A stretch of DNA of 64,000 nt from an uncultured candidatus Brocadiaceae bacterium (GCA_964448935.1 CAYVBE010000001.1:9422-73421); one strand, 5' to 3'; counted from the first letter of the stretch, positions 9,983 through 36,481 are shown. Made by a program: numbers and translations. Notes: generated from the letters alone by a model not told the origin.

Positions 9983-10382
9983 GCTCTTCTCCCAAAGTGC
10001 ATATGCCGTTGTGCAAGTGAAGCCGGCCCTCCACCCCGCAGCACCGCGCCGGCATATTGTTGTACGCGTAATGCCCCGTGGCGTGGAACAGGCCGAGGTA
10101 CGCAAGGAAAGCTCACACCCGAAAGGTCCAACACCGGCAATATACCCAATTGCAGTCCCTCTGTCAAGCAAACCGGCCGGCGACATCCCCGTGTCCCTCC
10201 GGTATTTGCCACCGAGCCGGGCCCCCGATTCGGTCTATATGTGTTGGGTGGCTTGCAGCGCCGTCGGGACGCTGCTATGATGGCGTGTGCTGTTTGGCAA
10301 GATGCGGGAAGGTGCGCGCAGGAGCGGCGTGCAGGAAGTGTCCCACACCTGGATGGTTTGCACGTGTTTCCGGAGGTGTCCG

Positions 10383-11432
10383 ATGAGTGACGACGAGGCG
10401 GGCCGTGATCCGGCTGCGGTGATTGACAAAGAGGACGACATCGAGACGGTCGAAGCGCTGGGCATGGCCTACCGGAAGATGGCCGAACACCTCGGTCGTG
10501 TCATCGTCGGGCAGACAGACGTCATCGAGCAGGTGATGATCACCATGTTCTGCCGGGGGCACGCGCTGCTGGTCGGCGTGCCCGGCCTGGCGAAGACCCT
10601 GCTGGTGCGCACGCTGTCGGACCTGCTCGATCTGGAATTCAGCCGAATCCAGTTCACCCCGGACCTGATGCCCTCCGACATTACCGGCACGGACGTGCTG
10701 GAGGAGGACCGGACCTCGGGCAAGAGGTTCTTCCGCTTCGTGCACGGGCCGCTGTTCGCCAACATGATCCTGGCCGACGAGATCAACCGCACCCCGCCGA
10801 AGACCCAGGCCGCGCTGCTGCAGGCCATGCAGGAGCGGGAGGTGAGCGTGGGCGAGACGACCCACGACCTGCCCGCGCCGTTCGTGGTGCTGGCCACCCA
10901 GAACCCCATCGAGCAGGAGGGCACCTATCCACTGCCGGAGGCGCAGCTTGACCGGTTTATGCTCAAGATCATGGTAGACTACCCCGACGCCCAGGAAGAG
11001 CTGGAGATCATGAAGCAGGTGACCGGCACGATGGAGCAGCGGCTGGAGCCGATCATCGGGGGAGAGGAGATCATGCGGCTGCAGCACGTGGTGCGCCGCG
11101 TGCCGGTGGCCGAGCACGTCTTCGAGTACGCCCGCGCCCTGGTGCGTGCGTCCCGTCCCGGTGAGGAGGAGGCGCCCGATTTCGTCGAGGAACTGGTCGA
11201 ATGGGGGGCCGGACCGCGTGCGAGCATCTTCCTGATCCTCACCGCCAAGGCCCGTGCCGTGCTCCACGGCCGCTATCACGCCACCACCGAGGACGTCCGC
11301 GCCCTGGCGCCGGCCGTGCTCCGACACCGGGTCATCACCACGTTCAACGCGGAGGCGGCCGGCCTGCGCTCGGACGACGTGGTCGAGCGCCTGTTGGAAG
11401 TCGTGCCCGAGCAGGCGGAACAGATCGTCTGA
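10383..11432 (+). CDS. MoxR-family AAA+ ATPase (AAA_3)
   Basis: Walker A GVPGLAKT, Walker B ILADEINR, and ...[28 protein letters not shown], typical of MoxR/RavA-like ATPases. It is the first gene of the MoxR-DUF58-vWA operon. Confidence 0.92.
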
Positions 11433-11464
11433 TGCCACCCCAGCGTCCGTAAACGGAGCCACAC

Positions 11465-12403
11465 ATGCCGGAGCAGGCCGCACCGGAGTACGCACGCCTT
11501 CTGGACCCGGACACGCTGGCCAAGGTACACCGACTGGAGCTGGTGGCGCGGGGGACGGTCGAGGGGTTCGTCAGCGGCCGCCACCAGAGCGTCTATAAGG
11601 GCGCCTCCGTCGAGTTCGCCGAGCACCGCCAGTACGTGCCCGGGGATGACGTGAAGGGCCTGGACTGGCGCGTTTACGCCAGGACCGACCGCTACTACGT
11701 GAAACAGTTCATGGAGGAGACGAACCTGCGGGCCACCATGCTGGTGGACGCCTCCGGCTCGATGGGCTACACCGGGGAGGAGGCGGCCCGGCACAACGGG
11801 ACCCGCCTCAGCAAGCTGGAATACGCCAAGTACATGGCCGCCTCGCTGATGCACATGATGATCCACCAGCAGGACGCCGTGGGGCTGGTGACCTGCGACG
11901 TGGATGTCAGGAGATACATCCCCGCCCGCAGCCGCGTCACCCACCTGCGGACGATGCTGGAGGAACTGGTCGGCACCGAACCGGGTGAGGAGACGGCCCT
12001 GGCGCCGATCTTCCACGACATCGCGGAGAGAATACACCGGCGCGGACTGGTGATCATCATATCCGACCTGTTTGACGACGCGGAGGACATCCTCAAGGCC
12101 CTGCACCATTTCCGCTACCGCAAGCACGAGGTCATCGTCTTCCACGTGATGGCCCGTGAGGAACTCACCTTCCCCTTCCGCGGGCAGGCACGCTTCCGTG
12201 ATCTGGAGGCCATGGCCCGCACGCTGCAGCTCGACGCCGGGGCGATCCGGGCCGAATACGTCGAGCGCGTGCGGGAGTTCGTGGGCCTCATGGAGCGCGG
12301 CTGCGGGCGGATGCAGGTGGATTATGTGCCCGTGTGCACGGAGGACCGCTTCGATGTCTCGTTGACCGAATACCTCGCGCGTCGGAGGCGTCGGACCAGA
12401 TGA
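11465..12403 (+). CDS. DUF58 family protein (MoxR partner)
   Basis: HRLELVARGTVEGFVSGRHQSVYKGASVEFAEHRQYVPGDDVKGLDWRVYARTDRYYVKQF is the DUF58 core. The stop overlaps the next start (ATGA at 12400-12403). Confidence 0.88.
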   Translation: MPEQAAPEYARLLDPDTLAKVHRLELVARGTVEGFVSGRHQSVYKGASVEFAEHRQYVPGDDVKGLDWRVYARTDRYYVKQFMEETNLRATMLVDASGSMGYTGEEAARHNGTRLSKLEYAKYMAASLMHMMIHQQDAVGLVTCDVDVRRYIPARSRVTHLRTMLEELVGTEPGEETALAPIFHDIAERIHRRGLVIIISDLFDDAEDILKALHHFRYRKHEVIVFHVMAREELTFPFRGQARFRDLEAMARTLQLDAGAIRAEYVERVREFVGLMERGCGRMQVDYVPVCTEDRFDVSLTEYLARRRRRTR

Positions 12404-14931
12404 CGTTTCTCAATCCCGCCATACTGATCGGACTGGTCGCGGTCTCCATACCCATCATCATCCACCTGCTGCACCGGCGCAACGCCAAGATGGTAGACTG
12501 GGCCGCGATGCGCTTTCTGCGCGACAGCCTGGCGGCGCGGAACCGGCGCATACTGCTGGAGGAGATGCTGTTGATGGCGCTGCGGTGCGTGGCGGTGGCG
12601 CTGCTTGTGATGGCGGCGGCGCGGCCGTTCCTGCCGGCGCAGTCGGCCATCCCCTGGATGGCGGTGCTGCCGGCGGCTCTGGCGGGCGCGGCGTGCGCGG
12701 GTGTGGGCACGGTCATGTGGTCGCACAGGCGGGCCGCGTGGCTGCTCATCGGGCTGGCGGTGCTGCTGCTGGGCGGCTCGGCGGGTTCCGCCGTGGCCGC
12801 GCACTTTCTGCAGGACGATCGCTGGTCTTCCGGCACGGAGGCCCGGGACATCGCCCTGGTCATTGACGGTTCCATGTCCATGTCCCTCAAGGTGGACGGG
12901 CGCACCAACTTCCAGCGCGCACTGAACGAGGCGGCGGTCCTGATCAAGCGGAGCCGGCCCGACGACGCCTTCTGCGTCATCGAGGCGGGCGCGCTGCCCA
13001 TTGCCGCCACCAGCGGCCCCATACGCGACCGCGAAAAGCTGCGGGAGGCCCTGGGCGGCCTCCAGCCCACGGGCGGCTCGATGGACCTGCTGAAGAACCT
13101 GACCTTCGCGGCCGCCAGGCTCCTGGAGGGGCAGAACCCCGGCAAGGAGATCGTGCTGCTGACCGACGGGCAGCAGGTGGGCTGGTCGCTGGACAACCGC
13201 GCGCGGTGGCAGTTCCTGGCCTCGACGCTGGACCGGTTCGGCGAACGGCCCGGGATAGTCTGTCGCACCTTCCCGCTGCCCACGGAGTGCCACAACTGTG
13301 CCGTGGGCGACGCCACGCGCTCGCGCCGCGTCGTGGGCATGGACCGGCCTGTGCACATGGGGTTCCAGGTGCTGAACGCCGGCACCGGGCGGAGCGGCCG
13401 GCTGGTGCTCAGGCTCAGCGTGGACGACGCACCGGCGCGCTCGCGCCAGCTGGCCCCCATGCGGCCGGGCGCGTCCGAGGAGATCGAGTTCGCCCATCGG
13501 TTTCTCAGGCCCGGGGCGCACGTGGTGCGCGCCGCGCTGGCCGGGCGGGACCAACTGCGGGGGGACGACGAGGCGGCGTTCGTGGTCAACGTTCTGGAAA
13601 GTCTGCCCGTGCTGATTGTCGAAGGCGCCCCGACGGGACGGCCCCTGGCCGGGGCGGCCTCGTTCATGGACGTGGCCCTGGCGCCGATGCCCGGCGAAGA
13701 GGGTGAGGAGGAGGCGGGCAGAAGGGCCGGGGAGTTCGTTGACACGACCGTGGTTCCGATCACGGAAATCGCCCGGGTCCGCAATCTGGCGGACTATTCG
13801 GTGGTCATTCTGGCCGACGTGCCCAGGCTGCCGGAGGAGACGGTCGGGCGCCTGCAGGTGTTCGTGCGCGAGGGCGGCGGCCTTCTGGTGGCGCCCGGCC
13901 GCCGGGCCGACCGCGAGTTCTACAACGGATGGCAGGTGGACGAGGGCCGGCCGATGATGCCGGCGGTCCTGGTGGAAAGAAAGGATGTCGGCGAGGACGA
14001 AGAGCCCGTCACGCCCGCTGTGAAGACCATCAGCCATCCCGCGCTTTCGCTGGTGGCCGACACCGACCGATCGGACCTGGGCTCGGCGGTCATCCGGTCC
14101 TACTGGCGGCTGCACGCGGACGAAAGCCATGGAAAGGTCATCAGGGCCGCCGCCCTGAGCAACGGGGAACCGTTCGTGATCGAGGGCAAGGTGGGCAGGG
14201 GACGGGTGCTGATGACTGCGCTGTCGCTGGACCACCGGGACAGCTCGCTGCCCACCCTGCACTGCTATGTGCCGATGGTCCATGAGCTGGTTTACCACCT
14301 GGCCGCTCCGCGGCTGCCGCAGCTCAACGTCAGCCCGGGGTCGCCGGTCAGCTTCCCGCTGTCGGAGCAGATGGCGGCCGAGGTGTTCGGGTCGGACGGG
14401 CCGTCGCAGGAGCGCTCGGTGGAGGTGCTCACGCCGTGGAACGCGGTGCGCTCCGGCGCGCTCCAGCCGGCGTCCGAGGGCTGGCGGCTGAGCTTCGCCG
14501 GCACGCGCGAGCCCGGGCTGTATCACTTCTCCTTGCCGCCTGCTCCGGGCAAGCAGAAGGCGACGCGCCTGCCGTTCACCGTGCCGCGTAAGCTGGAGGA
14601 GAGCCTGATCGCGTCGCTGTCCGAGCATGACCTGAAGATGCCGCGGGAATACGTGGAGCTGATGACGGCGGCAAGTTCGGAGGACCTGGTGGACGTCATA
14701 TCCGGAGACGTGCCCGGCCGAGAGATATGGAGGCGCCTGCTGTTCTGCGTCATCCTGGCCCTGCTGCTCGAGATCGCGCTGTCCCGGTGGATAACCCTCA
14801 CGCGCCGGACGCAACGCGTCCGGGAGGTCGAGTTCGGCCGGCAGGTGTCGGACCCGGAGACCCTCCGCGCGCGCTTCGAGCAGCAGCGCGCGGACGCCCT
14901 GGCTGAAGCGCGGGAAAGCGAAGAGAAATGA
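12400..14931 (+). CDS. BatA-type membrane protein with vWA (MIDAS) domain
   Basis: N-terminus MTFLNPAILIGLVAVSIPIIIHLL matches the aerotolerance-regulator (BatA) N-terminal motif. A vWA domain with MIDAS DGSMSMS and ...VLLTDGQQ follows. Each junction is a 4-bp ATGA overlap (12400-12403 and 14928-14931). Confidence 0.85.
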   Translation: MTFLNPAILIGLVAVSIPIIIHLLHRRNAKMVDWAAMRFLRDSLAARNRRILLEEMLLMALRCVAVALLVMAAARPFLPAQSAIPWMAVLPAALAGAACAGVGTVMWSHRRAAWLLIGLAVLLLGGSAGSAVAAHFLQDDRWSSGTEARDIALVIDGSMSMSLKVDGRTNFQRALNEAAVLIKRSRPDDAFCVIEAGALPIAATSGPIRDREKLREALGGLQPTGGSMDLLKNLTFAAARLLEGQNPGKEIVLLTDGQQVGWSLDNRARWQFLASTLDRFGERPGIVCRTFPLPTECHNCAVGDATRSRRVVGMDRPVHMGFQVLNAGTGRSGRLVLRLSVDDAPARSRQLAPMRPGASEEIEFAHRFLRPGAHVVRAALAGRDQLRGDDEAAFVVNVLESLPVLIVEGAPTGRPLAGAASFMDVALAPMPGEEGEEEAGRRAGEFVDTTVVPITEIARVRNLADYSVVILADVPRLPEETVGRLQVFVREGGGLLVAPGRRADREFYNGWQVDEGRPMMPAVLVERKDVGEDEEPVTPAVKTISHPALSLVADTDRSDLGSAVIRSYWRLHADESHGKVIRAAALSNGEPFVIEGKVGRGRVLMTALSLDHRDSSLPTLHCYVPMVHELVYHLAAPRLPQLNVSPGSPVSFPLSEQMAAEVFGSDGPSQERSVEVLTPWNAVRSGALQPASEGWRLSFAGTREPGLYHFSLPPAPGKQKATRLPFTVPRKLEESLIASLSEHDLKMPREYVELMTAASSEDLVDVISGDVPGREIWRRLLFCVILALLLEIALSRWITLTRRTQRVREVEFGRQVSDPETLRARFEQQRADALAEARESEEK

Positions 14932-17900
14932 CCTTAGCCGCAATAGATCAGACGCTGCTTCCGGCGGGCATCCCGGCGCCGCTCGTGTGGCTCGGGGCGG
15001 TCGTGGTGGCGGGCGCCTGGTACCGATCGCACCGGTCGCTGCGCCCGGAGGGCGGGCCGTGGTGGCGGGCGGGCCTGTTTGTGGCGGCCAGATTCCTGAT
15101 CGGCTCGGCGGCCCTGCTGCTGATACTGGAAGGGATCGGGCGGCTGGGCGTGTTTTCCCTGGTCACCAACCTGCCGCTGTGGGCGTTTTGCCCGCTCGGA
15201 GCGGCGGGGGTGGAGGGCGTGGTGCTGCTGTACCGGGCGGAGCGCAGCCGCGTCTCGCCCACGGCGGGCCGGCTGCTCATGGCGCTCCGGGTGGTGCTGC
15301 TACTTCTGGTAATACTGATGCTGGCGCAGCCGGTGTTCGTGGAGGAGAACAGCCGCGAGTTGAAACGCACCGTGGCCGTGCTGCTGGACGATTCGCTGTC
15401 CATGCAGGTTCCCGATACTCACCTGGCGCCGTGGGAGAAGGTGCGGCTGGTGGAGGCCCTCGGGGCGTTGCCGGCCGAGCGGCCGGTGCAGTTGGAGGAG
15501 GTGCAGTGGGTGCTGGGAGAGCTGGCGGACCGAGTGGCCACCCAGGCCGAGTGGCTGGGTATGGCGGGCGGCCTGAAGCCCGAGGTGTTGGTGGAGCACC
15601 TGCGCGACCGCGCGAAGGACCTTCGCACCACGATCGCCGACGTGCGTCGGGAACTGCGCGCCCAGGGCGACAGGCTGTCGAAGGCATCGGAGACCGCTCA
15701 GTCCGCCGGGGACGAGATCAGGGCGTCGCTGAAGACTCTCGCCGAGGGGATGGAGCAGCAGGTCCACGCGCTCCTGGAGGCGGCAAAGGACCTGCTGTCC
15801 CGAGAGCCGGCGGAACTGGCCAGGCGCCACACGGAGCTTCTGCAGAAGCTGCAGAGCGCCGCCATCGCGCTGGACGCCCTGGCACAGCAGGTGAAGGGCC
15901 ATGCGCGAGAGGTGGACGCCGCCTTCTACGCGGCCCTGCCGGCCGAGCAGCGCGAAGCGGTGGACAGCATGGCGGGAATGACCCGCCTGCAACTGGCTCG
16001 GCGCCTGCTGCTGCCGCAGGAGGACGGCGAAACGGACGAGGCAAAGGCGGAGACACTCCTCGACCTGGTGGTGCCGCAGTACGGGCTCAAGGCGTACCGC
16101 TTCGCGGAGGAGGCGACGGAGATGCGGCTGCACCGCCCCGCCGAGGGTGAGGGCGATGGGGAGGACTCACCGGAAGCGCCCCGGACGCTGGAGGCGGGAC
16201 GGGCGGACAGCACGGATTTCGCGGCCGCCGTTGACCGGGTGCTCAGGGACCTGCCGGCGGAGAGGCTGGCGGGGATCATGTTCCTGACCGACGGCCGCCA
16301 CAACGCGTCCGCTTCGGCCGAAGCGGCGGCCCGGCAGGCGGGAACGGCGGGCCTGCGCATCCTGCCCGTGATGTTCGGCGCGACGGCCCCGCCACGTGAC
16401 GCGGCGGTGGTCAGCCTGGACGTGCCGGACGTCGTGTATGAGAAGGACACCGTGTACATCGGGGCCGATGTGAAGCTGGATGGGCTGGCCGGAAAGACGG
16501 CCACGTTGACCCTCCGGCGGACAGGGGAGGAGCAACCGCTGGCGACAAGGACCATAGACGTCGTGCGTGACCGGCACCGCGAAAAGGTGGAACTGAGCTA
16601 CACCCCGGAGGAGGCCGGAATACAGAATTTCGAAGTGGCGCTGAACACCTTCGAGGACGAGGTGTTCAAGGACAACAACCGCTGGCCGCTCAGCGTGCGG
16701 GTGAGCGAGGATAAGACCAGGCTGCTGGTTATCGAGGGCTACCCGCGCTGGGAATTCCGCTACCTGAAGAATCTGTTCGCGAACCGTGACCAGTCGGTCC
16801 ATCTGCAGTACGTGCTGTTCCGGCGGGACAAGGTCGGCGGCACCCAAGAGCTGCCCGAGATACCGGCCTCGGCCACGCGCGAGGAGGCCCAGGCCACCGC
16901 GCTGCCCCGCGACGAGATGGAGTGGCTAAAGTTCGACGTTATTGTCCTGGGCGACGTGCCGCCGGACCAGTTCGATGCCGCGGACCTGGATGCGCTGCGG
17001 CGTTTCGTGGAGGACCGGGGCGGCGTGCTCGTGGTCTTAGCCGGGCCCCGACACATGCCGCACGATTACACCGGCACGGTGCTGGAGAGCATCGTGCCCG
17101 TCCGCATAGACCGCAGCCAAGAGAAGGACGTTCTGGACGTTGCGGACAAGGGATATCACATCCGCCTCAGCCCAGAAGGGCGGCAGAGCGTCGTCATGCG
17201 CCAGAGCCTGAACCCGGAGGCGAACCTGGAGACCTGGCGCGGCTTCCCGCCGATCTACTGGCGCCATCCGCTGGTGAGCGCCAAACCCGGCGCCCGGGTC
17301 CTGGGATACGCCGTCGAGGCGACGGACGATGAGGATGAGTTGGCGGACGCAGGCGCGGACAATCCGGGCCACACGCCCGTGCTGGCCAGAGAAGCGCCGC
17401 TGATTCTGCTGCAACAGGTTTCTCTGGGACGGGTTATGATGCTGTGCTTCGACCGCACCTGGCGGCTGCGCTACCGCGCCGGGGACGAACACCACCACAA
17501 ATTCTGGGGCCAGGTCATGCGCTGGGCGACCGCCGGCAAGCTGGCCGCCGGAACGAACCTGGTCAAGCTGGGAACGGACAGGGCGCGCTACGCCCCCGGC
17601 TCCACGGTCACGGTGCGGGCCAGGATATTGGAGACCGACCTGTCGCCCGTCGCGAATGCCGAGGTAGCGGTCAACGTCTACCGGGGCGAGGAGCTGACGG
17701 AGCGGAAGGTGCTGCAGTACCTGTCGGACTCGCCCGGCATCTACGAGTGCCAGTTGGAGGCACCCCGTTCCGGGTCCTACCGTGTGGAACTCGATGCGCC
17801 GCGCGCGCGGTCCATACTGGCCTCGGAGGGCGCGGAGCAGGTGGTGGCGGAGTTTGCGGTGGACCCGGCCATGTCGCCGGAGAAGGTGGAACTGAGTCCG

Positions 17901-18116
17901 GACGGGGCGCTGTTGGAGCGGCTGGCGGAGTTGAGCGGGGGGGACGTGGCGGCTCCCTGGGAAGTGGGCCGTCTCCTTGAGCTTCTGGCTCCCAGCGTCT
18001 ATGTTCAAGAGGAGCGGCGCGAATATCCTCTGTGGAATTCCTGGCCGTTCTTGCTCGCCATTATAGGGGTCGCCACGGCGGAATGGCTGCTTCGTAGAAG
18101 GAGCGCGTTACCATGA
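14928..18116 (+). CDS. large multi-pass membrane protein of the BatA-like operon (degenerate vWA end motif plus glutamine-amidotransferase-like/DUF4159-like region)
   Basis: About four N-terminal TM helices. The segment GIMFLTDGRHNAS resembles a vWA C-terminal motif. ...LLVIEGYPRWEFRYLKNLF...VIVLGDVPPDQFDAADLDALRRFVEDRGGVLVVLAG matches the class-I GATase-like fold seen in BatA-operon partners. It is translationally coupled on both sides. Confidence 0.7.
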   Translation: MTLAAIDQTLLPAGIPAPLVWLGAVVVAGAWYRSHRSLRPEGGPWWRAGLFVAARFLIGSAALLLILEGIGRLGVFSLVTNLPLWAFCPLGAAGVEGVVLLYRAERSRVSPTAGRLLMALRVVLLLLVILMLAQPVFVEENSRELKRTVAVLLDDSLSMQVPDTHLAPWEKVRLVEALGALPAERPVQLEEVQWVLGELADRVATQAEWLGMAGGLKPEVLVEHLRDRAKDLRTTIADVRRELRAQGDRLSKASETAQSAGDEIRASLKTLAEGMEQQVHALLEAAKDLLSREPAELARRHTELLQKLQSAAIALDALAQQVKGHAREVDAAFYAALPAEQREAVDSMAGMTRLQLARRLLLPQEDGETDEAKAETLLDLVVPQYGLKAYRFAEEATEMRLHRPAEGEGDGEDSPEAPRTLEAGRADSTDFAAAVDRVLRDLPAERLAGIMFLTDGRHNASASAEAAARQAGTAGLRILPVMFGATAPPRDAAVVSLDVPDVVYEKDTVYIGADVKLDGLAGKTATLTLRRTGEEQPLATRTIDVVRDRHREKVELSYTPEEAGIQNFEVALNTFEDEVFKDNNRWPLSVRVSEDKTRLLVIEGYPRWEFRYLKNLFANRDQSVHLQYVLFRRDKVGGTQELPEIPASATREEAQATALPRDEMEWLKFDVIVLGDVPPDQFDAADLDALRRFVEDRGGVLVVLAGPRHMPHDYTGTVLESIVPVRIDRSQEKDVLDVADKGYHIRLSPEGRQSVVMRQSLNPEANLETWRGFPPIYWRHPLVSAKPGARVLGYAVEATDDEDELADAGADNPGHTPVLAREAPLILLQQVSLGRVMMLCFDRTWRLRYRAGDEHHHKFWGQVMRWATAGKLAAGTNLVKLGTDRARYAPGSTVTVRARILETDLSPVANAEVAVNVYRGEELTERKVLQYLSDSPGIYECQLEAPRSGSYRVELDAPRARSILASEGAEQVVAEFAVDPAMSPEKVELSPDGALLERLAELSGGDVAAPWEVGRLLELLAPSVYVQEERREYPLWNSWPFLLAIIGVATAEWLLRRRSALP

Positions 18117-21100
18117 CCAGCGAAGCTGTTTCTGGGCCGGAAAGCACTGTCCCACGCACCATCGTCAGCGTGCTCAGAAGCGTTATCCGCCGCGTGCGAT
18201 TCGTCATCGGACTGCGTGGCGTCTGCGTCGTCGCAACGGCCACACTGGCGGCCCTGCTGATCGTGATGGCCGTTGACCGGTCCATCGTGATCCTCGCGCA
18301 GTGGCCCCGGTGGATTCTGTCCCTCTGGGTGCTGGCCGTGGCGATCGGCAGCGCCGTGTTCTTCCTGATACGTCCCCTGGCGCATAGCTTCACCCTGCCC
18401 GGCATAGCGCGGGCGCTGGAGCTGCGCCACCCGGAGCTGCACGAACGCATAAGCTCCGCGGTGGAGCTGCTGGGAAGCCACGACCGGCCCGAGGTGCGGG
18501 GGTCGGAGGCGCTGATCGCCGCTCTGGCGGAGGAGGCCAGCCGGGACGTCAGGGAGCTTCGGCCCTCCCGCGAGGTCACCTTTCGGGCGGCGCGGCCTTT
18601 CCTGCTGGCCATGGCCGGGGCCCTGGCTATCATCGTCGGACTTCTGGCGTACTGGCCGGACCAGACGCGCCGGCTGCTGGCGCGCGCCGTGGCACCCTTC
18701 GCCAACCTGCCCAACGTCGCCGCCTATCAGTTGTCCGTGAGACCCGGCGACACCGTCAGCCTGCCGGATGACGCCGTCCGCGTCGAGTTGGCGGTGTGCA
18801 ACGACAGGGTCAACAAGGCCGTTCTGTACAGGGTGAGCCCGGATGGGCAGAGAGTGCGGTCCAATATGACCCGCATCGCGGACGGCGAGGAGGGGGCGCG
18901 GCGCTTCACGGTGACCTGTCCGCCCGCCCGCGCGGACTACCGCTACCGCGTCCGTGCGGCGGACGCCCTCAGCCGCTACTACAAGGTGCGCGTGGTGCCG
19001 CCGCCCGCCGTGGAGGGGCTGACGGTGCGCTACGACTATCCCGAATACGTCGGGCTGGAGCCGCGGGTCGTTGGGGGTTCGGACGGCGAGATAGAGGCCG
19101 TCGAGGGCAGCCGCGTGACCGTGACCGCCGCGCTGAACAAGACCGTCAGTAAGGCGTTGCTGATGGTGGATGACTGGAAGGAGCCGGTGGCTGGGGGAAC
19201 CGTGAAAGAGGACAGAGACGGCCGGGTGGCCTGCACGTTCGCCTTCGAATTGATGCCGGGGGTGGACGGCTCCTGGCGTATGGAAATCGCGGACGAGCAC
19301 GGCTTCCGGAACGATCAGACCGAGTATCCCATCCGCGCCCTGCCGGACACCGCCCCCACGGTGCGCGTCGGGCACCCTGAGAAGAGGCGCATACGCTGCC
19401 GGCCCTCGGACCGCCTGCCGGTTACCTACGCGGCCGTGGACGATTTTGGACTGGGCAACATAGAGCTTCTGCTGAAGGCCGACGACGGCAAAGTGAGGTC
19501 CCGCGTGCTGCCGTTGCCCGAGGAGGACAGGGGACCGCCGCTCGGGACGAGCGGTCGAGAGACGCTGGATTTCGCCTCGCGGGCGTTCGAGGGCGTGTCA
19601 AAGCTGGAATTCCAGGTTGCCGCGCAGGACAGGCTGCCGGCGGAAGACGACGGTCCGCAGGAGGGGCTGTCCAGGGTGTTCACCGTGATTCTGCAGCGGG
19701 AGGCGCCATCCTATACCTCGCAGTTGTGGCAGGAGATATACCGCGAGATGAGCGTCGGCCTGGAGGAGGTGCTCGAGGAGCTGAAGGCGGCCAAAGAGCA
19801 ATCCGCCGAGGCCCGCAAGTCTATGGCCGAAGAGTCCGAGGAGGCGGCGCAGAAGGCCGTGGAGAAGATGAATGAACTGAGCGAGCATCTGACCGATGCA
19901 GACTCCACTGCCCGCGAACTGGCGGCCGAGATGCAGCCCGGTCCGTATCAGAGCGTGGCGGAGCGGCTGGAAGACGTGGCCGACGAGCACATCACCCCCG
20001 CCGGCGAAGCGGCGGACGAGATGAAGCTGAACGAGGATGCTGAACAGCGCGGCGAGCTGGCCGACGAGGTGGACACGCACGTGGACGGCGCGATCGCGGC
20101 CATCGAGGAGATGCAGCAGGACGTGGAAGCCCTCACCGAGATGGGGGAGCGGCTGGAACGCCTGACGGAACTCACAGAGCGGGAGAAGGAGCTTGCACAG
20201 GCGCTGGAGGAAATGAGGGAAGATGCCGCTCAGGCTGCGATGTCGGAGGAGGGCTGGGAAGAGGCCCAGAGGGGACTGACCGATGAGGTGGGTCGCCTGC
20301 TGGAGGAGACCCCCGGCGGCCTGCAGGCCCAGGCCACACAGGACAGGCAGAGACTGAGCGACTACGCCGAAGAGGCGAAGCGCCTGAGCGAGCAGCAGGG
20401 GTCCCTGGCTGAAGATGCACAGCACGAGAGCGAACTGGCCGAGGTCGAGAAGGCGTTGGACGAGCTCGCCGAGAAGCAGCAGAAGCTGGCCGAGGATACC
20501 GGCGGGGAGAAACTGACGCGGGACCTGAAGCCACCGATGTCGGAGGTCTCGGACCGGATCAAGCAGCGCGAACTGGAGCAGGCCCAGGAGGGACAGAAGG
20601 AGGCGGAGAAGGAGCTGCGAAACCGGGCAGACGCGCTCCAGCGCGAGCAGAAGACCGAGGACCTGCTGCCGGACACGAAGAAGTTGGCTGAGGAGCAGCG
20701 GCACCTGGCGGACAAGGTCCAGAAGCTCCGGGACACCGCCGAACAGGTGGACGTTGCGAAAAAGGCCAAACCCCAGGCGGACAGGCTGGGGCGAGAGCAG
20801 GAGCAGCTCGCCCGGCGAGCCAAAAACCTGGAGGACAACGTGGCCAAAAACGAGGCCGCCGCGAAGCAGGGCAAGGCCAAACCGTCACAGGAGATGGACG
20901 CCGCCGCCCGGGAACTCAAGCAGGGCAAGGCGCAGGAAGCCTCTGCGGCTGCGCAGAAGGCGGCCGAAAAGGCGGAGGAGTTGACCCGACAGCTCCGCGA
21001 GGCTCAGAAGGCGGAGGGCGCCCAAGGCGTGGACAATTTGGCCAGAGAGGCCGACCGTATCGCCGATGCCCAGGCCAAACTGGCGAAGGAGATGGCGAAA

Positions 21101-22732
21101 TTGCCGGAGGGGCTAAAGGAGGAATTTGCCGCCCCGCAGGCCACGGCGCAGAAGAAAAGTGAAGCGATAGAGTCCGCGCGCGGTCTCGCAGAGCCCCAGC
21201 AGGCGCTGCGCGAGCAGATGGAGAAGGCGCGCCGGGAGTACAACCAGGCCACGCCGGAGGCTCGCAAGGCGTTTCACGACAAGGCGCCGATCTGGCACAC
21301 CGACCAGGTGAAGAAGTCGCTCCAGCGTGGCAAGCTGGAGGATGCCGCTTCACGGGCGCAGGAGTCTGCTGAGCGCCTGGAGCAGGCGGCTGAGGAGGTC
21401 GGCGAGCAGGCGGAGCAGATGGAGGAAGTTGCCGACAGGCCGAAGAAGGCCGAGGAGGTCGGCCACCTGGCGGAGCAGCAGGAGGAGCTGCGCAGGGAGC
21501 TGGCCGAGCTGAGCGAGAGGCGCGAACGGCTCCGTGAGAACCTGCGCGACCGGCAGTTGGAATGGCTGAAGGCCGAGCAGGCAGCGGTGGCGGAGGAGAC
21601 CGCGAAGCTGGCCTACCGCGCGCAGAACGTCTCGCTACAGGAGGACGGCCTGGAGCGTAACGCCTCGCGCGCGGCCGCCCGCGCCTCGCGTCAGATCGAG
21701 TCCCTGCAGATGCACGAAGCGTCCGATAGCGCCGACCAGGCGGCCCGAGACCTGGATGAGCTGGCGGAGCGATTCGAGGAGAAGGCGGAAGCCATGGCGG
21801 AAGCGGCCCTCGATGAGGCCGCCCCCGACCAGGAGTCCGCTGCGGCGCGAGTCGAGGATACCGCCCGGCACCGTGAGATAGCCGAACAGAGCGCCGCGCT
21901 GGCGGCGCGCGAAGAGGCGGTGGCCCAGGGGCTGGAGGCGCTGGCCGGCGAGCAGCACCCGGCCGTCACGCAGGCCGCGCAGCAGGAGATGACCCGCCGT
22001 GCCCGGACGCTGCAGCAGGGCGCGCAGGGAGTGCGGGACCGCCTGGCCCAGAGTTTCCCGGAGCACAGGGCGCACCAGCAGGCCGCCGAAGGCACGGAGC
22101 GGCTGGAGCAGGCCGCCGAAGCGGCCGAGCAGGCCGAGGATTTCCTGGGCCGGGAGCAGCCCGCCGAGGCCTTGCCCCAACAGCAGCAGGCATCCGACCA
22201 CCTGCAGGCCGCCGCCCGGGCGCTGGAGGATGCGGCGCGTCAATACGACCGCGCGCTGGCCGCTGCCGAAACGCCCGATCTGGCCGCAGCTGCCGCGGAG
22301 GATAGCCAGCCCCTTGCCGCCGCCTATGACGATGCCCACCAGGCGGCGCTCTCGGCGCAGGAGCTGGACACGGCACTGGCTGCCCAACGGCTTGAAGCCG
22401 CTCGGGCGCGCGCTGCCGCGCGGGCGCAACGGATGGACATTGCGCCGTTCTCGCTGTCGCAGCAGAACCTGCCGCAGATGGCGATGAGTCAGGCCGCCGA
22501 CCCTGAAACCGGCATCAAGGCCGTGCCGGCCGAGCAGACGGTGGCGAAGCTGCAGCGTGCCGGCATTGATCTGGATGACTGGGGCCGGCTGCCCAGCCAG
22601 CTTCGCAACGACATCCTGCAGGCGCCCGAGGAGAAGAGCCCCCGGGAGTATCGGGAACTGATCCGACGGTACTTCCGCGAGATCGCCCGCCGGGGGGCCG
22701 AGGAACCGGAGGGCAGGGAGCAAGAGGAATGA
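18113..22732 (+). CDS. 1539-aa membrane-anchored protein with about 1000-aa Ala/Glu/Gln/Lys-rich coiled-coil region (possibly DUF4175-like)
   Basis: N-terminal TM segments. The mid region is beta-rich. Residues from about 520 to the C-terminus are heptad-like low complexity (AEELTRQLREAQKAEGAQ..., EQAAEEVGEQAEQMEE...). ATGA overlaps with both neighbours (18113-18116, 22729-22732). Confidence 0.7.
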   Translation: MTSEAVSGPESTVPRTIVSVLRSVIRRVRFVIGLRGVCVVATATLAALLIVMAVDRSIVILAQWPRWILSLWVLAVAIGSAVFFLIRPLAHSFTLPGIARALELRHPELHERISSAVELLGSHDRPEVRGSEALIAALAEEASRDVRELRPSREVTFRAARPFLLAMAGALAIIVGLLAYWPDQTRRLLARAVAPFANLPNVAAYQLSVRPGDTVSLPDDAVRVELAVCNDRVNKAVLYRVSPDGQRVRSNMTRIADGEEGARRFTVTCPPARADYRYRVRAADALSRYYKVRVVPPPAVEGLTVRYDYPEYVGLEPRVVGGSDGEIEAVEGSRVTVTAALNKTVSKALLMVDDWKEPVAGGTVKEDRDGRVACTFAFELMPGVDGSWRMEIADEHGFRNDQTEYPIRALPDTAPTVRVGHPEKRRIRCRPSDRLPVTYAAVDDFGLGNIELLLKADDGKVRSRVLPLPEEDRGPPLGTSGRETLDFASRAFEGVSKLEFQVAAQDRLPAEDDGPQEGLSRVFTVILQREAPSYTSQLWQEIYREMSVGLEEVLEELKAAKEQSAEARKSMAEESEEAAQKAVEKMNELSEHLTDADSTARELAAEMQPGPYQSVAERLEDVADEHITPAGEAADEMKLNEDAEQRGELADEVDTHVDGAIAAIEEMQQDVEALTEMGERLERLTELTEREKELAQALEEMREDAAQAAMSEEGWEEAQRGLTDEVGRLLEETPGGLQAQATQDRQRLSDYAEEAKRLSEQQGSLAEDAQHESELAEVEKALDELAEKQQKLAEDTGGEKLTRDLKPPMSEVSDRIKQRELEQAQEGQKEAEKELRNRADALQREQKTEDLLPDTKKLAEEQRHLADKVQKLRDTAEQVDVAKKAKPQADRLGREQEQLARRAKNLEDNVAKNEAAAKQGKAKPSQEMDAAARELKQGKAQEASAAAQKAAEKAEELTRQLREAQKAEGAQGVDNLAREADRIADAQAKLAKEMAKLPEGLKEEFAAPQATAQKKSEAIESARGLAEPQQALREQMEKARREYNQATPEARKAFHDKAPIWHTDQVKKSLQRGKLEDAASRAQESAERLEQAAEEVGEQAEQMEEVADRPKKAEEVGHLAEQQEELRRELAELSERRERLRENLRDRQLEWLKAEQAAVAEETAKLAYRAQNVSLQEDGLERNASRAAARASRQIESLQMHEASDSADQAARDLDELAERFEEKAEAMAEAALDEAAPDQESAAARVEDTARHREIAEQSAALAAREEAVAQGLEALAGEQHPAVTQAAQQEMTRRARTLQQGAQGVRDRLAQSFPEHRAHQQAAEGTERLEQAAEAAEQAEDFLGREQPAEALPQQQQASDHLQAAARALEDAARQYDRALAAAETPDLAAAAAEDSQPLAAAYDDAHQAALSAQELDTALAAQRLEAARARAAARAQRMDIAPFSLSQQNLPQMAMSQAADPETGIKAVPAEQTVAKLQRAGIDLDDWGRLPSQLRNDILQAPEEKSPREYRELIRRYFREIARRGAEEPEGREQEE
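19690..22700 (+). repeat. protein-level low-complexity/coiled-coil coding region (A/E/Q/K/R/L rich)
   Basis: About 3 kb of coding sequence that translates to continuous charged, Ala-rich heptad-like sequence. There are no exact DNA repeats, only compositional periodicity. Confidence 0.6.
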
Positions 22733-23790
22733 GTTTTCTGTGGCATTACAGTAAGTACGCGGCCTGCGTCGGCGTGGCTTTTGCCGCGCTCCTGGCGCTG
22801 GGGGCCGGCGAGCCGGCGCCGGACGAGGACTCCCTGAAGCAATACGAGGAAAAGACCGACCGGGCCGTTGATCTGGGCCTGAAGTTCCTGGCCTCACAGC
22901 AGCAGAACGACGGCGCCTTCCGGGGCAAATGGACCCACAACACCGGCATTGCTTCACTCTGCGTGATGGCGTTCCTCGCCGGGGGCTACACGCCGGGCAC
23001 CGGTCCGCACGGGGAGACCATCAACAAGGGCATTGATTACGTGCTGAGCGCCCAGAACAAGGACGGCATGATCCTGGGGCGCCAGAAGAGCCACGGGGGC
23101 ATGTACAGCCACTCCATCTCCACTCTGCTGCTCTCCGAGGTGTCGGGCATGGTGGATGGGGAGCGGCAGAAGAAGATTGACGAAGCATTGCCCAGGGCTC
23201 TGCACATCATCCTGTCGGCGCAGAAACTCGACAAGAACAATCGGTTCGACGGCGGGTGGCGCTATAACTCCAACAGCCGCGACAGCGACATCTCCTGCAC
23301 CGGCTGGCCTTTGATGGCGCTGCGGTCGGCGCGCAACAACGGCGCAGCGGTCCCGAAGGACGCCATCGAGAACGGCCTGAAATTCGTGCTGAACTGCCGC
23401 AGCGGTGATGGCGGGTTCGCCTATCAGCCGGGCAGAGGTTCGGGAGTGGCCAGGACGGGCACCGCGCTGCTGTGCCTTGAGCTCTGTGGCATGCACGAGA
23501 GCAAGGAGGCGCAAGGGGCGGCCGAATACCTGCTCAAACACGGGCACGACAATAGCTGGTTCTACTACGGCATCTACTACTGCGCGCAGGGCATGTACCA
23601 GCTCGGCGGCCGCTACTGGCAGGAGTACGGCCCGTCCATCTTCAAGACGCTTCTGGACAGGCAGAACGATGAGGGCTCCTGGCCGGACAACTCGGGCGGC
23701 GGGGGCCGCGCCGGCAAGAGCTACTCCACCGCCATGTCCGTCCTCGCCCTCAGCGTTCCCTACTGCCAGTTGCCCATCTACCAGCGCTGA
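22729..23790 (+). CDS. secreted prenyltransferase/squalene-oxidase (terpene-cyclase-like alpha/alpha-toroid) repeat protein, paralog 1
   Basis: Signal peptide, then repeated QxxDGGF/GGW motifs (QQQNDGAFRG, SAQNKDGMILG, NRFDGGWRYN, RSGDGGFAYQ, RQNDEGSWPD) characteristic of the SQHop-cyclase/prenyltransferase repeat fold. It is the last, translationally coupled gene of the MoxR/BatA operon. Confidence 0.8.
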   Translation: MSFLWHYSKYAACVGVAFAALLALGAGEPAPDEDSLKQYEEKTDRAVDLGLKFLASQQQNDGAFRGKWTHNTGIASLCVMAFLAGGYTPGTGPHGETINKGIDYVLSAQNKDGMILGRQKSHGGMYSHSISTLLLSEVSGMVDGERQKKIDEALPRALHIILSAQKLDKNNRFDGGWRYNSNSRDSDISCTGWPLMALRSARNNGAAVPKDAIENGLKFVLNCRSGDGGFAYQPGRGSGVARTGTALLCLELCGMHESKEAQGAAEYLLKHGHDNSWFYYGIYYCAQGMYQLGGRYWQEYGPSIFKTLLDRQNDEGSWPDNSGGGGRAGKSYSTAMSVLALSVPYCQLPIYQR

Positions 23791-26440: not shown

Positions 26441-26833
26441 GTGATGGCGCAAGGCGGCGACAGGCAAGGAAAGTGGCGGATCGTGGAGTTCCCGGCGGAT
26501 GAGCGTCCCATCTCGCGTTTTATGAGCGAGAGGCTCCAAGAGGAGCAGTTAAAGGTCGTTGCGGCCTATCTCAGAAAATGCAAACAACATCCGAAGGGGC
26601 CATTCTGGAATTCCTACAAGTTCAAGAAACTGAGTGGGTCGGAGAATATCTGGGAGAGGAAACCCGGTGGCCAGGTCCGTCTTCTCGGTTTCTTCGACCC
26701 CGACGAGAGGCGTGTTTTTGTTCTCACAAACGGTTTTGTCAAGAAGCAAGACCGAACTCCGCGACGGGAGATTGAGCGGGCCGAAAAAGCGCATAGGCGG
26801 TTGATCCGGGCCCGAGAAGGGAGAGGGAAATGA
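26441..26833 (+). CDS. type II toxin, HigB/RelE-ParE superfamily (phage Gp49-like, DUF891)
   Basis: WRIVEF...FWNSYKFKKLSGSENIWERKPGGQVRLLGFFDPDERRVFVLTNGFVKKQDRTPRREIERAEK matches Gp49-like/HigB toxins. It is 130 aa and overlaps the downstream HTH gene by ATGA. Confidence 0.8.
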   Translation: MMAQGGDRQGKWRIVEFPADERPISRFMSERLQEEQLKVVAAYLRKCKQHPKGPFWNSYKFKKLSGSENIWERKPGGQVRLLGFFDPDERRVFVLTNGFVKKQDRTPRREIERAEKAHRRLIRAREGRGK

Positions 26834-36354: not shown

Positions 36355-36481
36355 CGGCGCGAACAAAACCGGGATTCAGGACCACTAAGTCCTGTGAAGA
36401 TTGCCTGAGAAGAGGTGTGCCATCCGCAAGCGACCGTCGGTCATCGCTCGCATGTGCCATACAAAGCGCAGAAAGGGAGTT

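Follow-up and report, generated by a model that had tools for sequence, protein, structure and literature searches.

Few bacterial operons without a known mechanism are as widespread as the MoxR-DUF58-Bat loci. The Bacteroides Bat operon and its spirochaete relatives, such as bb0170-bb0176 of Borrelia, are made up of moxR, a DUF58 gene, batA, batB, batC, batD, and batE. A role in stress has been proposed for the MoxR/Bat loci of Bacteroides, Leptospira, Francisella, and Riemerella (PMC3557215, PMC11834572, PMC5700661). Alphaproteobacteria carry a shorter, four-gene arrangement of the MoxR-DUF58-BatA/DUF4159-membrane protein type. In this branch, mutant phenotypes are known to us for RL3499-RL3502 of Rhizobium leguminosarum alone. 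They concern envelope integrity and cell morphology (PMC3893208), and RL3499 and RL3500 were scored as growth-impaired on complex medium in a study that cites Vanderlinde 2011 by title (PMC5118466). The MoxR-vWA-transglutaminase operon of Zhang and Aravind (PMC3495828) was also considered as a counterpart and set aside, as its third component differs.

The locus described here lies in a window of 64,000 nucleotides (the whole stretch of DNA that was analysed) from an uncultured candidatus Brocadiaceae bacterium. Open reading frames were found on the + strand at exactly the coordinates that a first-pass annotation had given to six co-directional genes, here called g1 to g6, and the four ATGA stop/start overlaps it had reported are present at 12400, 14928, 18113, and 22729. 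The remaining junction, g1-g2, is a gap of 32 nt, and Shine-Dalgarno motifs (GGAGG/GGAG) precede both g1 and g2, with GGAGG lying 7 nt upstream of the g1 ATG at 10383. The 5′ intergenic region (10187..10382, + strand) separates g1 from the divergent rpsB on the minus strand and presumably contains the operon promoter, whose position is left unplaced because no sigma-70-like match occurs on the + strand. Within the operon interior, terminator-like sites are not above chance. Genes on the opposite strand border the operon on both sides: upstream these are rpsB and a gene for an amino-acid kinase, downstream they are genes for a ParA-like protein and a sulfatase. The GC content of the operon resembles that of the flanking DNA. 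Together with the conserved gene order described below, the reading-frame coordinates and ATGA overlaps support the earlier claim that this is a real, translationally coupled six-gene operon.

Related loci across species representatives were gathered with the HPELxERIS pattern of g5, which is specific to the PVC lineage. The same gene order is found upstream in 56 of the 63 loci with enough upstream sequence, and g6 follows g5 in 47 of 50, so the arrangement is not due to chance and the last three genes are syntenic with MoxR/DUF58 in other genomes. Start codons compatible with a 4-bp overlap occur at the g3/g4 junction in 28 loci, at g4/g5 in 27, and at g5/g6 in 32. The six-gene order is conserved in Planctomycetes (Planctomycetota), Verrucomicrobia (Verrucomicrobiota), and Lentisphaerae, in aerobic and anaerobic PVC lineages alike, while the neighbouring genes differ from genome to genome; the closest relative among species representatives is a 'Brocadiaceae'-labelled MAG (62% identity). 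A sulfatase gene on the opposite strand downstream recurs in one other locus (L006). A more divergent, seven-gene version (L092) includes an extra 215-aa ORF alongside a g5-like and a g6-like gene and ends with an NPCBM (glycan-binding) protein. In about five loci (L001, L018, L059, L062, and L071) g5 is found apart from the operon, and it therefore may not strictly depend on MoxR. A tblastn search of plasmids with the g5 N-terminus gave no match. Separately, a plasmid search with DUF58 returned other operon types only, on pPL62-3 of Planctomyces sp. SH-PL62 (DUF58-BatA-VWA-hypotheticals) and, unannotated, on pSymB of S. meliloti. The first-pass annotation had suggested that this enlarged version was uncharacterised, and our literature search likewise found no published description of the six-gene form.

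The MoxR-DUF58-BatA/VWA triad recognised by that annotation is borne out by Pfam matches in g1, g2, and g3. The product of g1 (10383-11432, + strand, 349 aa) is a MoxR-type AAA+ ATPase that matches AAA_3 (5.7e-62, 207.8 bits, cutoff 27) and AAA_lid_2 (2.4e-18, 66.1 bits, cutoff 22.7), along with PDB entry 2r44 (6.6e-81) and the bpMoxR model (1.3e-14). Its Walker A (G65-VPGLAKT72) and Walker B (D132-E133) motifs are at least 95% conserved among 53 orthologs, and from these intact motifs it is predicted to be ATPase-competent. The DUF58 protein g2 (11465-12403, + strand, 312 aa) matches DUF58 (PF01882; 2.6e-47, 161.3 bits, cutoff 23.4) and VWA_2 (4e-7), with an intact MIDAS (D95-x-S97-x-S99 and S200-D201) that is at least 95% conserved, and is presumed to be the adaptor of MoxR. 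No transmembrane (TM) segment or signal peptide was detected in either protein, and both are therefore read as cytoplasmic.

The BatA-type inner-membrane protein g3 (12400-14931, + strand, 843 aa) is taken to start at the ATG at 12400 rather than at the GTG at 12334 because its BatA_N match (PF07584; 1.1e-16, 61.4 bits, cutoff 25.9) begins at residue 1. It also matches TIGR02226 in NCBIfam (2.5e-20, 72.5 bits, cutoff 23.05) and VWA_2 in Pfam (2.7e-13), with weak Pfam matches to CARDB, ThuA, and GH42M. Four N-terminal TM helices, with the N-terminus out and a conserved cytosolic loop, are followed by a predicted periplasmic portion containing a VWA domain with MIDAS, a CARDB-like sandwich, and a GATase1-like region, and then by a C-terminal TM helix and a cytosolic tail of 44 aa; the MIDAS residues D156/S158/S160 and the loop residues H22, R26, W34, F39, R49, and R50 are at least 95% conserved. 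The BatB-like protein g4 (14928-18116, + strand, 1062 aa) has a similar layout. Its four TM helices at the N-terminus precede a VWA domain with an intact MIDAS, which a helical-bundle insert of ~170 aa (189-361) splits; next come a CARDB-like sandwich, a GATase1-like domain, an MG2-like sandwich (24.8 bits, under the cutoff of 32.8), and a C-terminal TM helix. Its N-terminal region scores 17.4 bits against a BatA_N-type model, below cutoff, and aligns to g3 by hhalign, which indicates that the two proteins are paralogs. In essence, g4 resembles BatB with an added GATase1-like domain, which has a likeness to the GIFT domain of IFT52 and to ThuA-like sugar-pathway proteins. The conserved nucleophilic Cys of a Cys-His-Glu triad was not found in the GATase1-like domains of g3 and g4, and these GATase1/GIFT-like domains are predicted to be non-catalytic; neither a redox domain nor a conserved Cys pair was detected in the ectodomains. 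The polytopic protein of the first-pass annotation is indeed a 1062-aa membrane protein, but it is related to g3, being a paralog that has five TM helices and a single large ectodomain. That it extends the triad is not supported, since g4-type proteins belong to the wider MoxR-DUF58-BatA core, as in the alphaproteobacterial four-gene operon. Only g5 and g6 are add-ons to that core.

The larger of these, g5 (18113-22732, + strand, 1539 aa), is a rod protein probably related to DUF4175. From a cytosolic N-terminus, the predicted topology runs through TM1 and TM2 to a cytosolic domain of ~75 aa (87-161) and TM3. This domain, which carries HPELxERIS, is the best-conserved part of the protein, with an identity of 0.65 over residues 101-150 and invariant H106, P107, E108, E111, R112, and S114. 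About four predicted periplasmic beta-sandwich domains (~200-530) lead into a very acidic helical rod (~534-1442), after which come a disordered linker and, at the C-terminus, a small conserved motif, W1490...PxEYRxLIxxYF. Scanned whole, the protein is below threshold for DUF4175, which it does not match at E<=0.01, whereas its N-terminal 596 aa alone reach 29.3 bits against PF13779 (cutoff 27.3; profile positions 191-394 of 825). By hand count, a precomputed PF13779 match is present in 36 of 120 g5 homologs among those listed, and no NCBIfam model, TIGR02302-like or other, matches g5 or three of its orthologs. The DUF4175 family, to which g5 is probably related, comprises long membrane proteins carrying low-complexity tails; like g5, they have TM helices at the N-terminus and an extended extracytoplasmic region rich in Ala, Gln, and Glu. 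Among 1.84 billion representatives, 8390 are related to the g5 N-terminal module at E<=1e-3. An invariant cytosolic domain and a C-terminal motif of its own set apart the PVC clade (450 representatives at E<=1e-30). The DUF4175 protein of the Acinetobacter AdvA paper is a different, short protein and not comparable to g5.

The helical part of g5 had been described as an uninterrupted coiled coil of roughly 1000 residues, about 150 nm long, and this description does not hold. Residues 540-1460 favour helix (A 21%, E 16.5%, Q 10%), yet ~24 Pro and ~30 Gly fall among them, the longest Pro-free stretch being 127 residues, and a significant 3.5-residue periodicity is found in only 10-15 of 61 windows of sequence, with no continuous heptad register. 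An AlphaFold2 (AF2) model of a full-length ortholog (pLDDT 86.5) has at least 14 helices of 15-68 residues, bundled and joined by short loops at pLDDT above 90, and its best structural matches are four-helix bundles and the talin/vinculin/alpha-catenin rods. The region is accordingly modelled as a segmented, talin-like tandem helical-bundle rod. It is also not a tail missing from homologs, being present in all 30 orthologs measured, at 459-2258 aa, although residues 803-1175 form a 373-residue insertion relative to the modelled ortholog and the 850-1100 stretch is absent from most homologs. Correlations of g5 length with g3 and g4 length are weak and confounded by phylogeny, and g4 is nearly constant in length among orthologs.

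The last gene, g6 (22729-23790, + strand, 353 aa), encodes a secreted single-domain alpha/alpha-toroid protein. The signal peptide and toroid fold noted in the first-pass annotation were recovered, with Pfam matches to SQHop_cyclase_C (2.5e-12) and Prenyltrans (1.1e-9), so that the domain searches as a whole returned AAA_3, DUF58, BatA_N with VWA, and SQHop_cyclase_C. Conservation within the set is highest in g6 (55-66% identity, more than 100 clusters), which has invariant GGWRY, D185-S-D187-I-S189, and C-terminal QLPIYQR motifs and forms with g5 a pair of constant partners, one a large helical membrane protein and the other a secreted alpha/alpha-toroid. The terpene-cyclase label is best taken to denote a fold, not an activity. 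The profile match to squalene-hopene cyclase in the PDB (9.4e-12) comes from repeat-level matches only, the DxDD of class II cyclases is absent, with HMMER placing I188 opposite the catalytic Asp, and class II terpene cyclases have two barrels (beta-gamma) whereas g6 is a single barrel of 353 aa. No alpha-subunit-like gene of a protein prenyltransferase was found by Pfam among the six proteins, and the g6 sequence lacks the CxEQ thioester motif of alpha2-macroglobulin and complement, the nearest match being C-L-E-L. A g6 paralog at 28172-29236 sits between a GFO/IDH/MocA oxidoreductase gene and a xylose-isomerase-like TIM-barrel gene, and its position beside sugar-type oxidoreductases hints at a metabolic or cargo role that is not purely structural.

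How these parts could work together depends on where they reside. TIGR02226 describes a double-TM anchor of N-out orientation whose loop is cytosolic. Both TM prediction and positive-inside counts point to periplasmic VWA domains in g3 and g4, and the VWA domain of the BatA-type Borrelia protein BB0173 is periplasmic by experiment (PMC5700661). According to predicted topology and the TM helices of AF2 models, nearly all of the mass of g3, g4, and g5 lies outside the inner membrane; their ectodomains are predicted to be periplasmic, which is as far as predicted topology goes. It is hypothesized that a MoxR hexamer is recruited by the DUF58 MIDAS adaptor and that this pair docks on the BatA_N loop and tails of g3 and g4 and, above all, on the 75-residue cytosolic domain of g5, these being the only conserved cytosolic features that the membrane proteins g3, g4, and g5 would offer. 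We infer the docking onto g5 from conservation and compartment only. ATP use by MoxR could then drive the assembly or conformational remodelling of a periplasmic complex in which the two VWA MIDAS sites of g3 and g4 would clamp acidic ligands, candidates being the acidic g5 rod or envelope proteins. The rod would extend for tens of nanometres beyond the inner membrane rather than for 150 nm, and the g6 toroid, translated last and coupled to g5, may offer a ligand pocket for a glycan or isoprenoid-type molecule.

By analogy, the most likely physiological role of this complex would be building or maintaining the architecture and integrity of the envelope and periplasm, since the Rhizobium RL3499-RL3502 mutants show envelope and morphology defects. 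Against this, the analogy is to a four-gene alphaproteobacterial relative without g5 and g6, Bat operons elsewhere are tied to oxidative stress, g5 is found away from the operon in several loci, and the g6 paralog adjoins sugar-type oxidoreductases. We put at about an even chance the reading, taken jointly with the whole proposed mechanism and role, that the locus is a PVC-lineage version of the known MoxR-DUF58-BatA/BatB cell-envelope systems. A more specific form, in which the g5 rod, the g3/g4 VWA clamps, and the g6 toroid make up a PVC-specific, inner-membrane-anchored apparatus that is controlled by MoxR/DUF58 and remodelled by ATP, and that sets or senses periplasm width or passes toroid-bound macromolecular cargo inward, possibly as a counterpart of the Akkermansia MUL 'periplasmic complex', is distinctly doubtful.

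Capture or uptake of periplasmic macromolecules, with the VWA, GATase1/GIFT-like, and toroid domains binding a polysaccharide or glycoprotein cargo and the rod and MoxR powering or organising its movement into the enlarged PVC periplasm, is possible though unlikely. It would fit the resemblance of the g4 GATase1-like domain to GIFT and ThuA-like proteins, for which the Pfam matches are weak, the sugar-type neighbours of the g6 paralog, the NPCBM protein that closes the divergent operon, and the downstream sulfatase genes. The Akkermansia MUL1 locus may be MoxR/Bat-like. MUL genes, encoding 'pili and periplasmic protein complexes', are required for the intracellular accumulation of mucin products (PMC12418764, a review), and mul1A has been named a mucin transport gene (PMC12570417). 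However, the likeness to MUL1 is putative, no carbohydrate-binding or transporter domain was detected in the six proteins, the operon neighbours vary between genomes, and the alphaproteobacterial core operon adjoins phospholipid-synthesis genes rather than glycan genes. That the complex is instead a Bat-type 'aerotolerance' system, sensing or mitigating oxidative or other envelope stress, is improbable. The MoxR-DUF58-BatA/BatB core is in common, and Bat/MoxR loci have been tied to stress tolerance (PMC3557215, PMC11834572, PMC5700661), but the ectodomains carry no redox domain or conserved Cys pair, BatC/D/E (TPR, BatD) are not in the operon, aerobic and anaerobic PVC lineages both possess it, and Bat homologs themselves have no experimentally demonstrated specific function (PMC3557215).

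The conservation of g6 could also place an enzyme at the centre of the system, as an active periplasmic isoprenoid cyclase, prenyl-type enzyme, or glycan lyase/hydrolase, with MoxR/VWA as its maturation or positioning machinery in the manner of CbbQO and NorQD. Invariant D185/D187 and H128, many aromatics around the would-be barrel centre, a D-S-D-I-S segment that by eye lines up with the DxDD(T) of squalene-hopene cyclase, and a weak pectate-lyase match all speak for this. We hold it to be quite improbable, as the DxDD is not intact, with I188 at the catalytic position, the barrel is single, the operon has no prenyltransferase alpha subunit, and direct chaperoning of g6, an exported protein, by the cytoplasmic MoxR is topologically awkward. 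A machine that spans the envelope and takes its length from a continuous coiled-coil ruler of ~150 nm has in its favour the long helical region of all measured orthologs and heptad-like periodicity in some g5 stretches, but is highly improbable given the prolines and glycines, the short and confidently modelled helices, the bundle- and talin-type structural matches, and a helical-region length that varies five-fold among orthologs while g4 hardly changes. Hardly credible is a MoxR-vWA conflict or anti-phage system as in Kaur et al. 2020. Ternary MoxR-vWA systems are known in Planctomycetes and Verrucomicrobia (PMC7159879) and g1 matches the bpMoxR model, yet that source leaves DUF58 systems unmentioned and none of the six proteins contains an effector domain. 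With no PADLOC match for any of the six, flank-like GC without compositional anomaly, housekeeping neighbours, and synteny across phyla, the locus is not a defence island.

Returning to the reading as a PVC-lineage cell-envelope system, the PVC version is informative through its translational coupling and its conservation across three phyla, and high-confidence models give a full parts list with a clear split between compartments. The bundle rod and the highly conserved toroid, its two constant add-ons, are concrete experimental handles. If the g5 cytosolic domain is the dock for MoxR/DUF58, it would be, to our knowledge, the first defined client of this MoxR branch and would show how an AAA+ protein in the cytoplasm can work on an assembly in the periplasm. 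In Planctomycetes and Verrucomicrobia, Akkermansia relatives included, a tie to envelope architecture or to the uptake of polymers would be of wider interest, and the PVC-specific apparatus, if real, would take part in PVC cell organisation or 'whole-polymer' uptake as a component for which we found no description.

Among known systems, the MoxR-VWA pairs RavA-ViaA, CbbQ-CbbO, and NorQ-NorD resemble g1/g2 in combining a MoxR ATPase with a MIDAS-bearing VWA adaptor in one compartment, and a common logic is presumed, in which the adaptor grips the client by an acidic residue for remodelling by the ATPase. Those pairs act on soluble or membrane enzymes, whereas here the only plausible clients would be the cytosolic loops of a scaffold (g3/g4/g5), and four of the six proteins lie mostly across the membrane from MoxR. 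The talin, vinculin, and alpha-catenin rods are an analogy to g5 with no detectable sequence relationship, g5 being bacterial, membrane-anchored, and predicted to be periplasmic, and force-dependent unfolding of its rod would be pure speculation. For DUF4175 (PF13779)/TIGR02302, it is the beta-sandwich region of g5 that exceeds the Pfam cutoff when scanned alone. The alphaproteobacterial operons, RL3499-RL3502 included, have the gene order of g1-g4 but are four genes only, without the g5 rod or toroid, and their BatA protein has DUF4159 in place of the VWA and GATase1-like domains. In the one locus examined, a MoxR-DUF58-BatA/DUF4159-g4-like operon in a Stellaceae MAG, the fourth gene is not of the DUF4175 type but a distant g4 homolog (tblastn 1e-9, a weak match, 27% identity over 39% of the query). 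RL3499-RL3502 shares the layout of this Stellaceae operon, and its RL3501/RL3502 would be putative counterparts of g3 and g4. In contrast to the Bat operons of Bacteroides and spirochaetes, the window operon is without TPR (BatC/E), BatD, and SH3 proteins, and Pfam gave no TPR or BatD match for any of the six, even with fragments scanned at E<=10. It has instead a DUF4175-type sandwich-rod fusion and a secreted alpha/alpha-toroid, and its g3 and g4 carry extra Ig-like and GATase1-like domains and a C-terminal TM anchor.

The plus-strand operon at 10383-23790 comprises six open reading frames lying exactly where the first-pass annotation had placed them, encoding a MoxR ATPase (g1, 10383-11432), a DUF58 protein (g2, 11465-12403), a BatA-type protein (g3, 12400-14931), a BatB-like protein (g4, 14928-18116), a DUF4175-related rod protein (g5, 18113-22732) and a secreted toroid (g6, 22729-23790). 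All four of the ATGA overlaps it reported (12400, 14928, 18113 and 22729) are present, g1 and g2 are separated by 32 nt with a GGAG(G) motif ahead of each, and no terminator-like sites beyond shuffled expectation were found inside the unit. The operon is bordered upstream by rpsB and an amino-acid-kinase gene on the minus strand and downstream by genes for a ParA-like ATPase and a sulfatase, and its GC content (0.66-0.70) is like that of its flanks. Pfam and NCBIfam searches support the earlier MoxR, DUF58 and BatA-vWA domain calls, with AAA_3 (5.7e-62) and AAA_lid_2 in g1, DUF58 (2.6e-47) in g2, BatA_N/TIGR02226 and VWA_2 in g3, and SQHop_cyclase_C and Prenyltrans in g6, while whole g4 and g5 returned nothing over cutoff in either collection.

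These six genes are tightly co-inherited. A g5 search recovered 146 relatives of 900-2400 aa in Planctomycetota, Verrucomicrobiota and Kiritimatiellia, and look-ups of single homologs found all six genes in this order, 4-bp overlaps being frequent, in a relative at 62% identity and in one MAG each of Verrucomicrobiales and Brocadiia. Scanning 185,579 species genomes for g5 yielded 256 relatives, and we mapped all six window proteins onto the best 80 loci, which by hand tally are labelled Planctomycetota (37), Verrucomicrobiota (25), Lentisphaerae/Victivallales (7), 'Anaerolineales' (6) and unclassified (5). The resulting restriction to the Planctomycetes, Verrucomicrobia and Lentisphaerae lineages (PVC) is partly built in, since the peptide pattern used for the scan, HPE[LM][QH]ER[IL]S, is itself PVC-specific. 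The six 'uncultured Anaerolineales' MAG contigs (L017, L023, L036, L043, L044 and L082; 37-40% identity to g5 over the best segment) carry an otherwise PVC-restricted operon, and their bins are probably mislabelled or contaminated. The first-pass annotation had staked its proposal on the last three genes being syntenic with MoxR and DUF58 elsewhere, and they are: g1-g4 precede g5, in order and co-oriented with it, in 56 of the 63 loci with enough room, g4 adjoins g5 in 62/70, and g6 lies downstream of g5 in 47/50. Several seeming exceptions are artefactual, produced by contig ends or partial matches; the true ones, where g5 is not beside MoxR, DUF58, g3 and g4, are loci L001 (=L031), L018, L059, L062 and L071, the solitary g5 of L059 having unrelated neighbours (DUF7133, an MFS transporter and an FAD oxidoreductase). 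A far more divergent version on a 51%-GC metagenome contig (L092) runs MoxR, DUF58, BatA/VWA, a g4-like gene, a 999-aa g5-like gene and a 215-aa ORF, followed by a toroid with 34% identity to g6. The operon is large, it occurs in each of the three PVC phyla sampled, and its structural annotation is now in place.

Profile-profile comparison of the g3 and g4 ortholog alignments (98.7% probability, E 3e-16, 546 columns aligned) identifies the two proteins as paralogs. The AlphaFold2 model of g4 (pLDDT 83) has four TM helices at its N-terminus and one at its C-terminus, and between them a VWA fold, split by a helical-bundle insert (residues 189-361), followed by two sandwiches, the first a beta-sandwich, with an alpha/beta domain between them; matches to g4 include many VWA/I-domains, and its sequence profile also matches 3rht (1.3e-6). 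Orthologs of g4 are near-fixed in length (1027-1102 aa). The MIDAS residues of g4 (D154, S156, S158 and D455-G456) are invariant, and those of g3 and DUF58 are at least 95% conserved. The GATase1-like domains of g3 and g4 lack a conserved Cys and are therefore not amidotransferases. Positive-inside counts give both g3 and g4 an N-out, four-TM topology, each with a large predicted periplasmic domain, a C-terminal TM helix and a basic or mixed cytosolic tail, which agrees with the BatA-type protein BB0173, whose VWA is periplasmic by experiment (PMC5700661).

The g5 protein belongs only marginally to DUF4175 by sequence score, its N-terminal 596 residues alone reaching 29.3 bits against a cutoff of 27.3, and a PF13779 match is precomputed in 36 of the 120 homologs listed (hand count). 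Exhaustive phmmer with residues 1-560 found 450 representatives at E<=1e-30, 4397 at E<=1e-10 and 8390 at E<=1e-3. Conservation peaks between TM2 and TM3, in a stretch predicted to be cytosolic (identity 0.65 at residues 101-150; H106, P107, E108, E111, R112 and S114 invariant), is moderate at 550-800 and 1150-1539, and is low at 850-1100, where most homologs are gapped. The helical region is not the poorly conserved low-complexity tail, absent from homologs, that the first-pass annotation had named as refuting its proposal: all 30 orthologs measured have it, although over a five-fold spread of lengths (459-2258 residues, median 862). Its earlier description as an uninterrupted coiled coil is contradicted by its Pro and Gly content (about 24 and about 30 residues, the longest Pro-free stretch being 127 residues), by a patchy 3.5-residue periodicity, significant in only 10-15 of 61 overlapping 56-residue windows, and by an ortholog model. 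The composition, 21% A, 16.5% E and 10% Q with large hydrophobic residues at just 13-22%, also counts against it. We modelled P0114, a full-length Verrucomicrobiales ortholog (1184 aa) from a confirmed six-gene operon, with 97 sequences (pLDDT 86.5 overall, >90 through most helices). The model has three TM helices and, in the cytosol, a small helical domain, along with about four beta-sandwiches; short loops connect at least 14 helices, each 15-68 residues long, and the C-terminal part has a disordered linker followed by a small helical motif. These helices map to g5 save for one 373-residue insertion (g5 803-1175, window 20519-21637), itself containing 11 Pro and 11 Gly. The rod is accordingly modelled as a chain of helical bundles, not a coiled coil. 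The rod-coding stretch at 20001-22000 shows a strong AT skew (0.445) with a GC skew of 0.165, which we ascribe to purine-rich Glu/Ala/Lys/Gln codons and not to a replication feature.

The best-conserved of the six proteins is g6 (55-66% identity over >100 clusters), a signal peptide followed by a single alpha/alpha barrel. Invariant features are GGWRY, D185-S-D187-I-S189, H128, many aromatics and the C-terminal QLPIYQR. These last seven residues (window 23767-23790) do not vary among 37 aligned homologs and keep at least 95% conservation across 56 orthologs, a degree unusual for a protein terminus that suggests a docking peptide. Of the proposed terpene-cyclase-fold protein with a signal peptide, the signal peptide and the fold, a safe assignment, stand; the match to squalene-hopene cyclase in a profile search against the PDB (9.4e-12) is a sum of weak repeat-motif matches in which DxDD is not preserved, and the CxEQ thioester motif is absent from the sequence. 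A paralog outside the operon (28172-29236, plus strand, 354 aa, 75% identical) has the same signal peptide, GGWRY and RDSDISCTGWP, and its C-terminus, SVPYCQLPIYQR, is identical. It is flanked by sugar-type oxidoreductase genes, with a GFO/IDH/MocA oxidoreductase gene (27197-28150) on one side and xylose-isomerase-like TIM-barrel and aldo/keto-reductase genes on the other. Additional g6 copies are suggested by tblastn spans in loci L074 and L033. Between the operon region and the paralog lies a plus-strand Gp49-like (DUF891) gene (26441-26833), which we take to be a HigB-type toxin. Elsewhere on the plus strand, a 1924-aa ORF (36401-42175) sits in a clearly lower-GC stretch (0.56-0.60 vs about 0.66), and a RACo-type reductive activator of corrinoid proteins (5232-7085; Fer2 and RACo domains, 9.4e-79) hints that the source organism has an anaerobic, corrinoid-dependent metabolism.

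Two of the six proteins are predicted to be cytoplasmic, three anchored with periplasmic bulk and one secreted, and the ATPase and MIDAS motifs are intact in the sequences. MoxR and DUF58 would act on the conserved cytosolic elements, g5 residues 87-161 and the BatA_N loop, so that a periplasmic complex is assembled or remodelled; the periplasmic MIDAS sites may bind acidic ligands, possibly the acidic g5 rod, and g6 could be a ligand-binding subunit. We propose, by analogy, a role in envelope or periplasm organisation because of the Rhizobium RL3499-RL3502 operon, in which RL3499 is reported to be important for cell morphology and the integrity of the membrane (PMC3893208), and INSeq data show RL3499 and RL3500 to be growth-impaired on complex medium (PMC5118466). 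A cargo or uptake role ranks second to envelope organisation, and four readings rank below it. One is an aerotolerance-type stress role. Another centres on an enzyme, which g6 may or may not be. A third is the 150-nm ruler of the first-pass annotation, although a rod made of six to eight bundles would be tens of nanometres long rather than 150 nm. The fourth is a defence system, and none of the six proteins matched a PADLOC model.

Proteins of the g4 type are not peculiar to PVC bacteria. An alphaproteobacterial (Stellaceae) locus, L091, encodes MoxR, DUF58, a 906-aa BatA+DUF4159 protein and a distant homolog of g4 with 703 aa, and on a TARA contig the genes are DUF4159, g4-like, a 365-aa ORF, TPR, a second DUF4159, MoxR and DUF58; from these gene sets, the four-gene core is widespread and its helical accessory protein exchangeable, being TPR in some lineages and the g5 rod in others. 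Directly after the L091 operon, at 10143-11730, lie psd (phosphatidylserine decarboxylase) and a CDP-alcohol phosphatidyltransferase gene, a possible connection between the system and the synthesis of membrane phospholipids. A different DUF58-BatA-VWA operon occurs on the 81-kb plasmid pPL62-3 of Planctomyces sp. SH-PL62 (L088, 551-1386), where DUF58 is annotated as two overlapping CDSs, possibly through a frameshift, and the MoxR gene upstream of it would straddle the start of the record.

The Bacteroides-type Bat operon has BatC, BatD and BatE, and because all three are absent here, the window operon falls outside that narrower type. In the literature searched, neither the domain-rich g3/g4 ectodomains nor the two constant PVC add-ons (the bundle rod, with its invariant cytosolic domain, and the highly conserved toroid) appear to have been described. 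Nothing in the locus overturns expectations: it belongs to, and works like, the broad MoxR-DUF58-BatA/BatB class, and it offers testable handles on the long-standing question of MoxR/Bat function.
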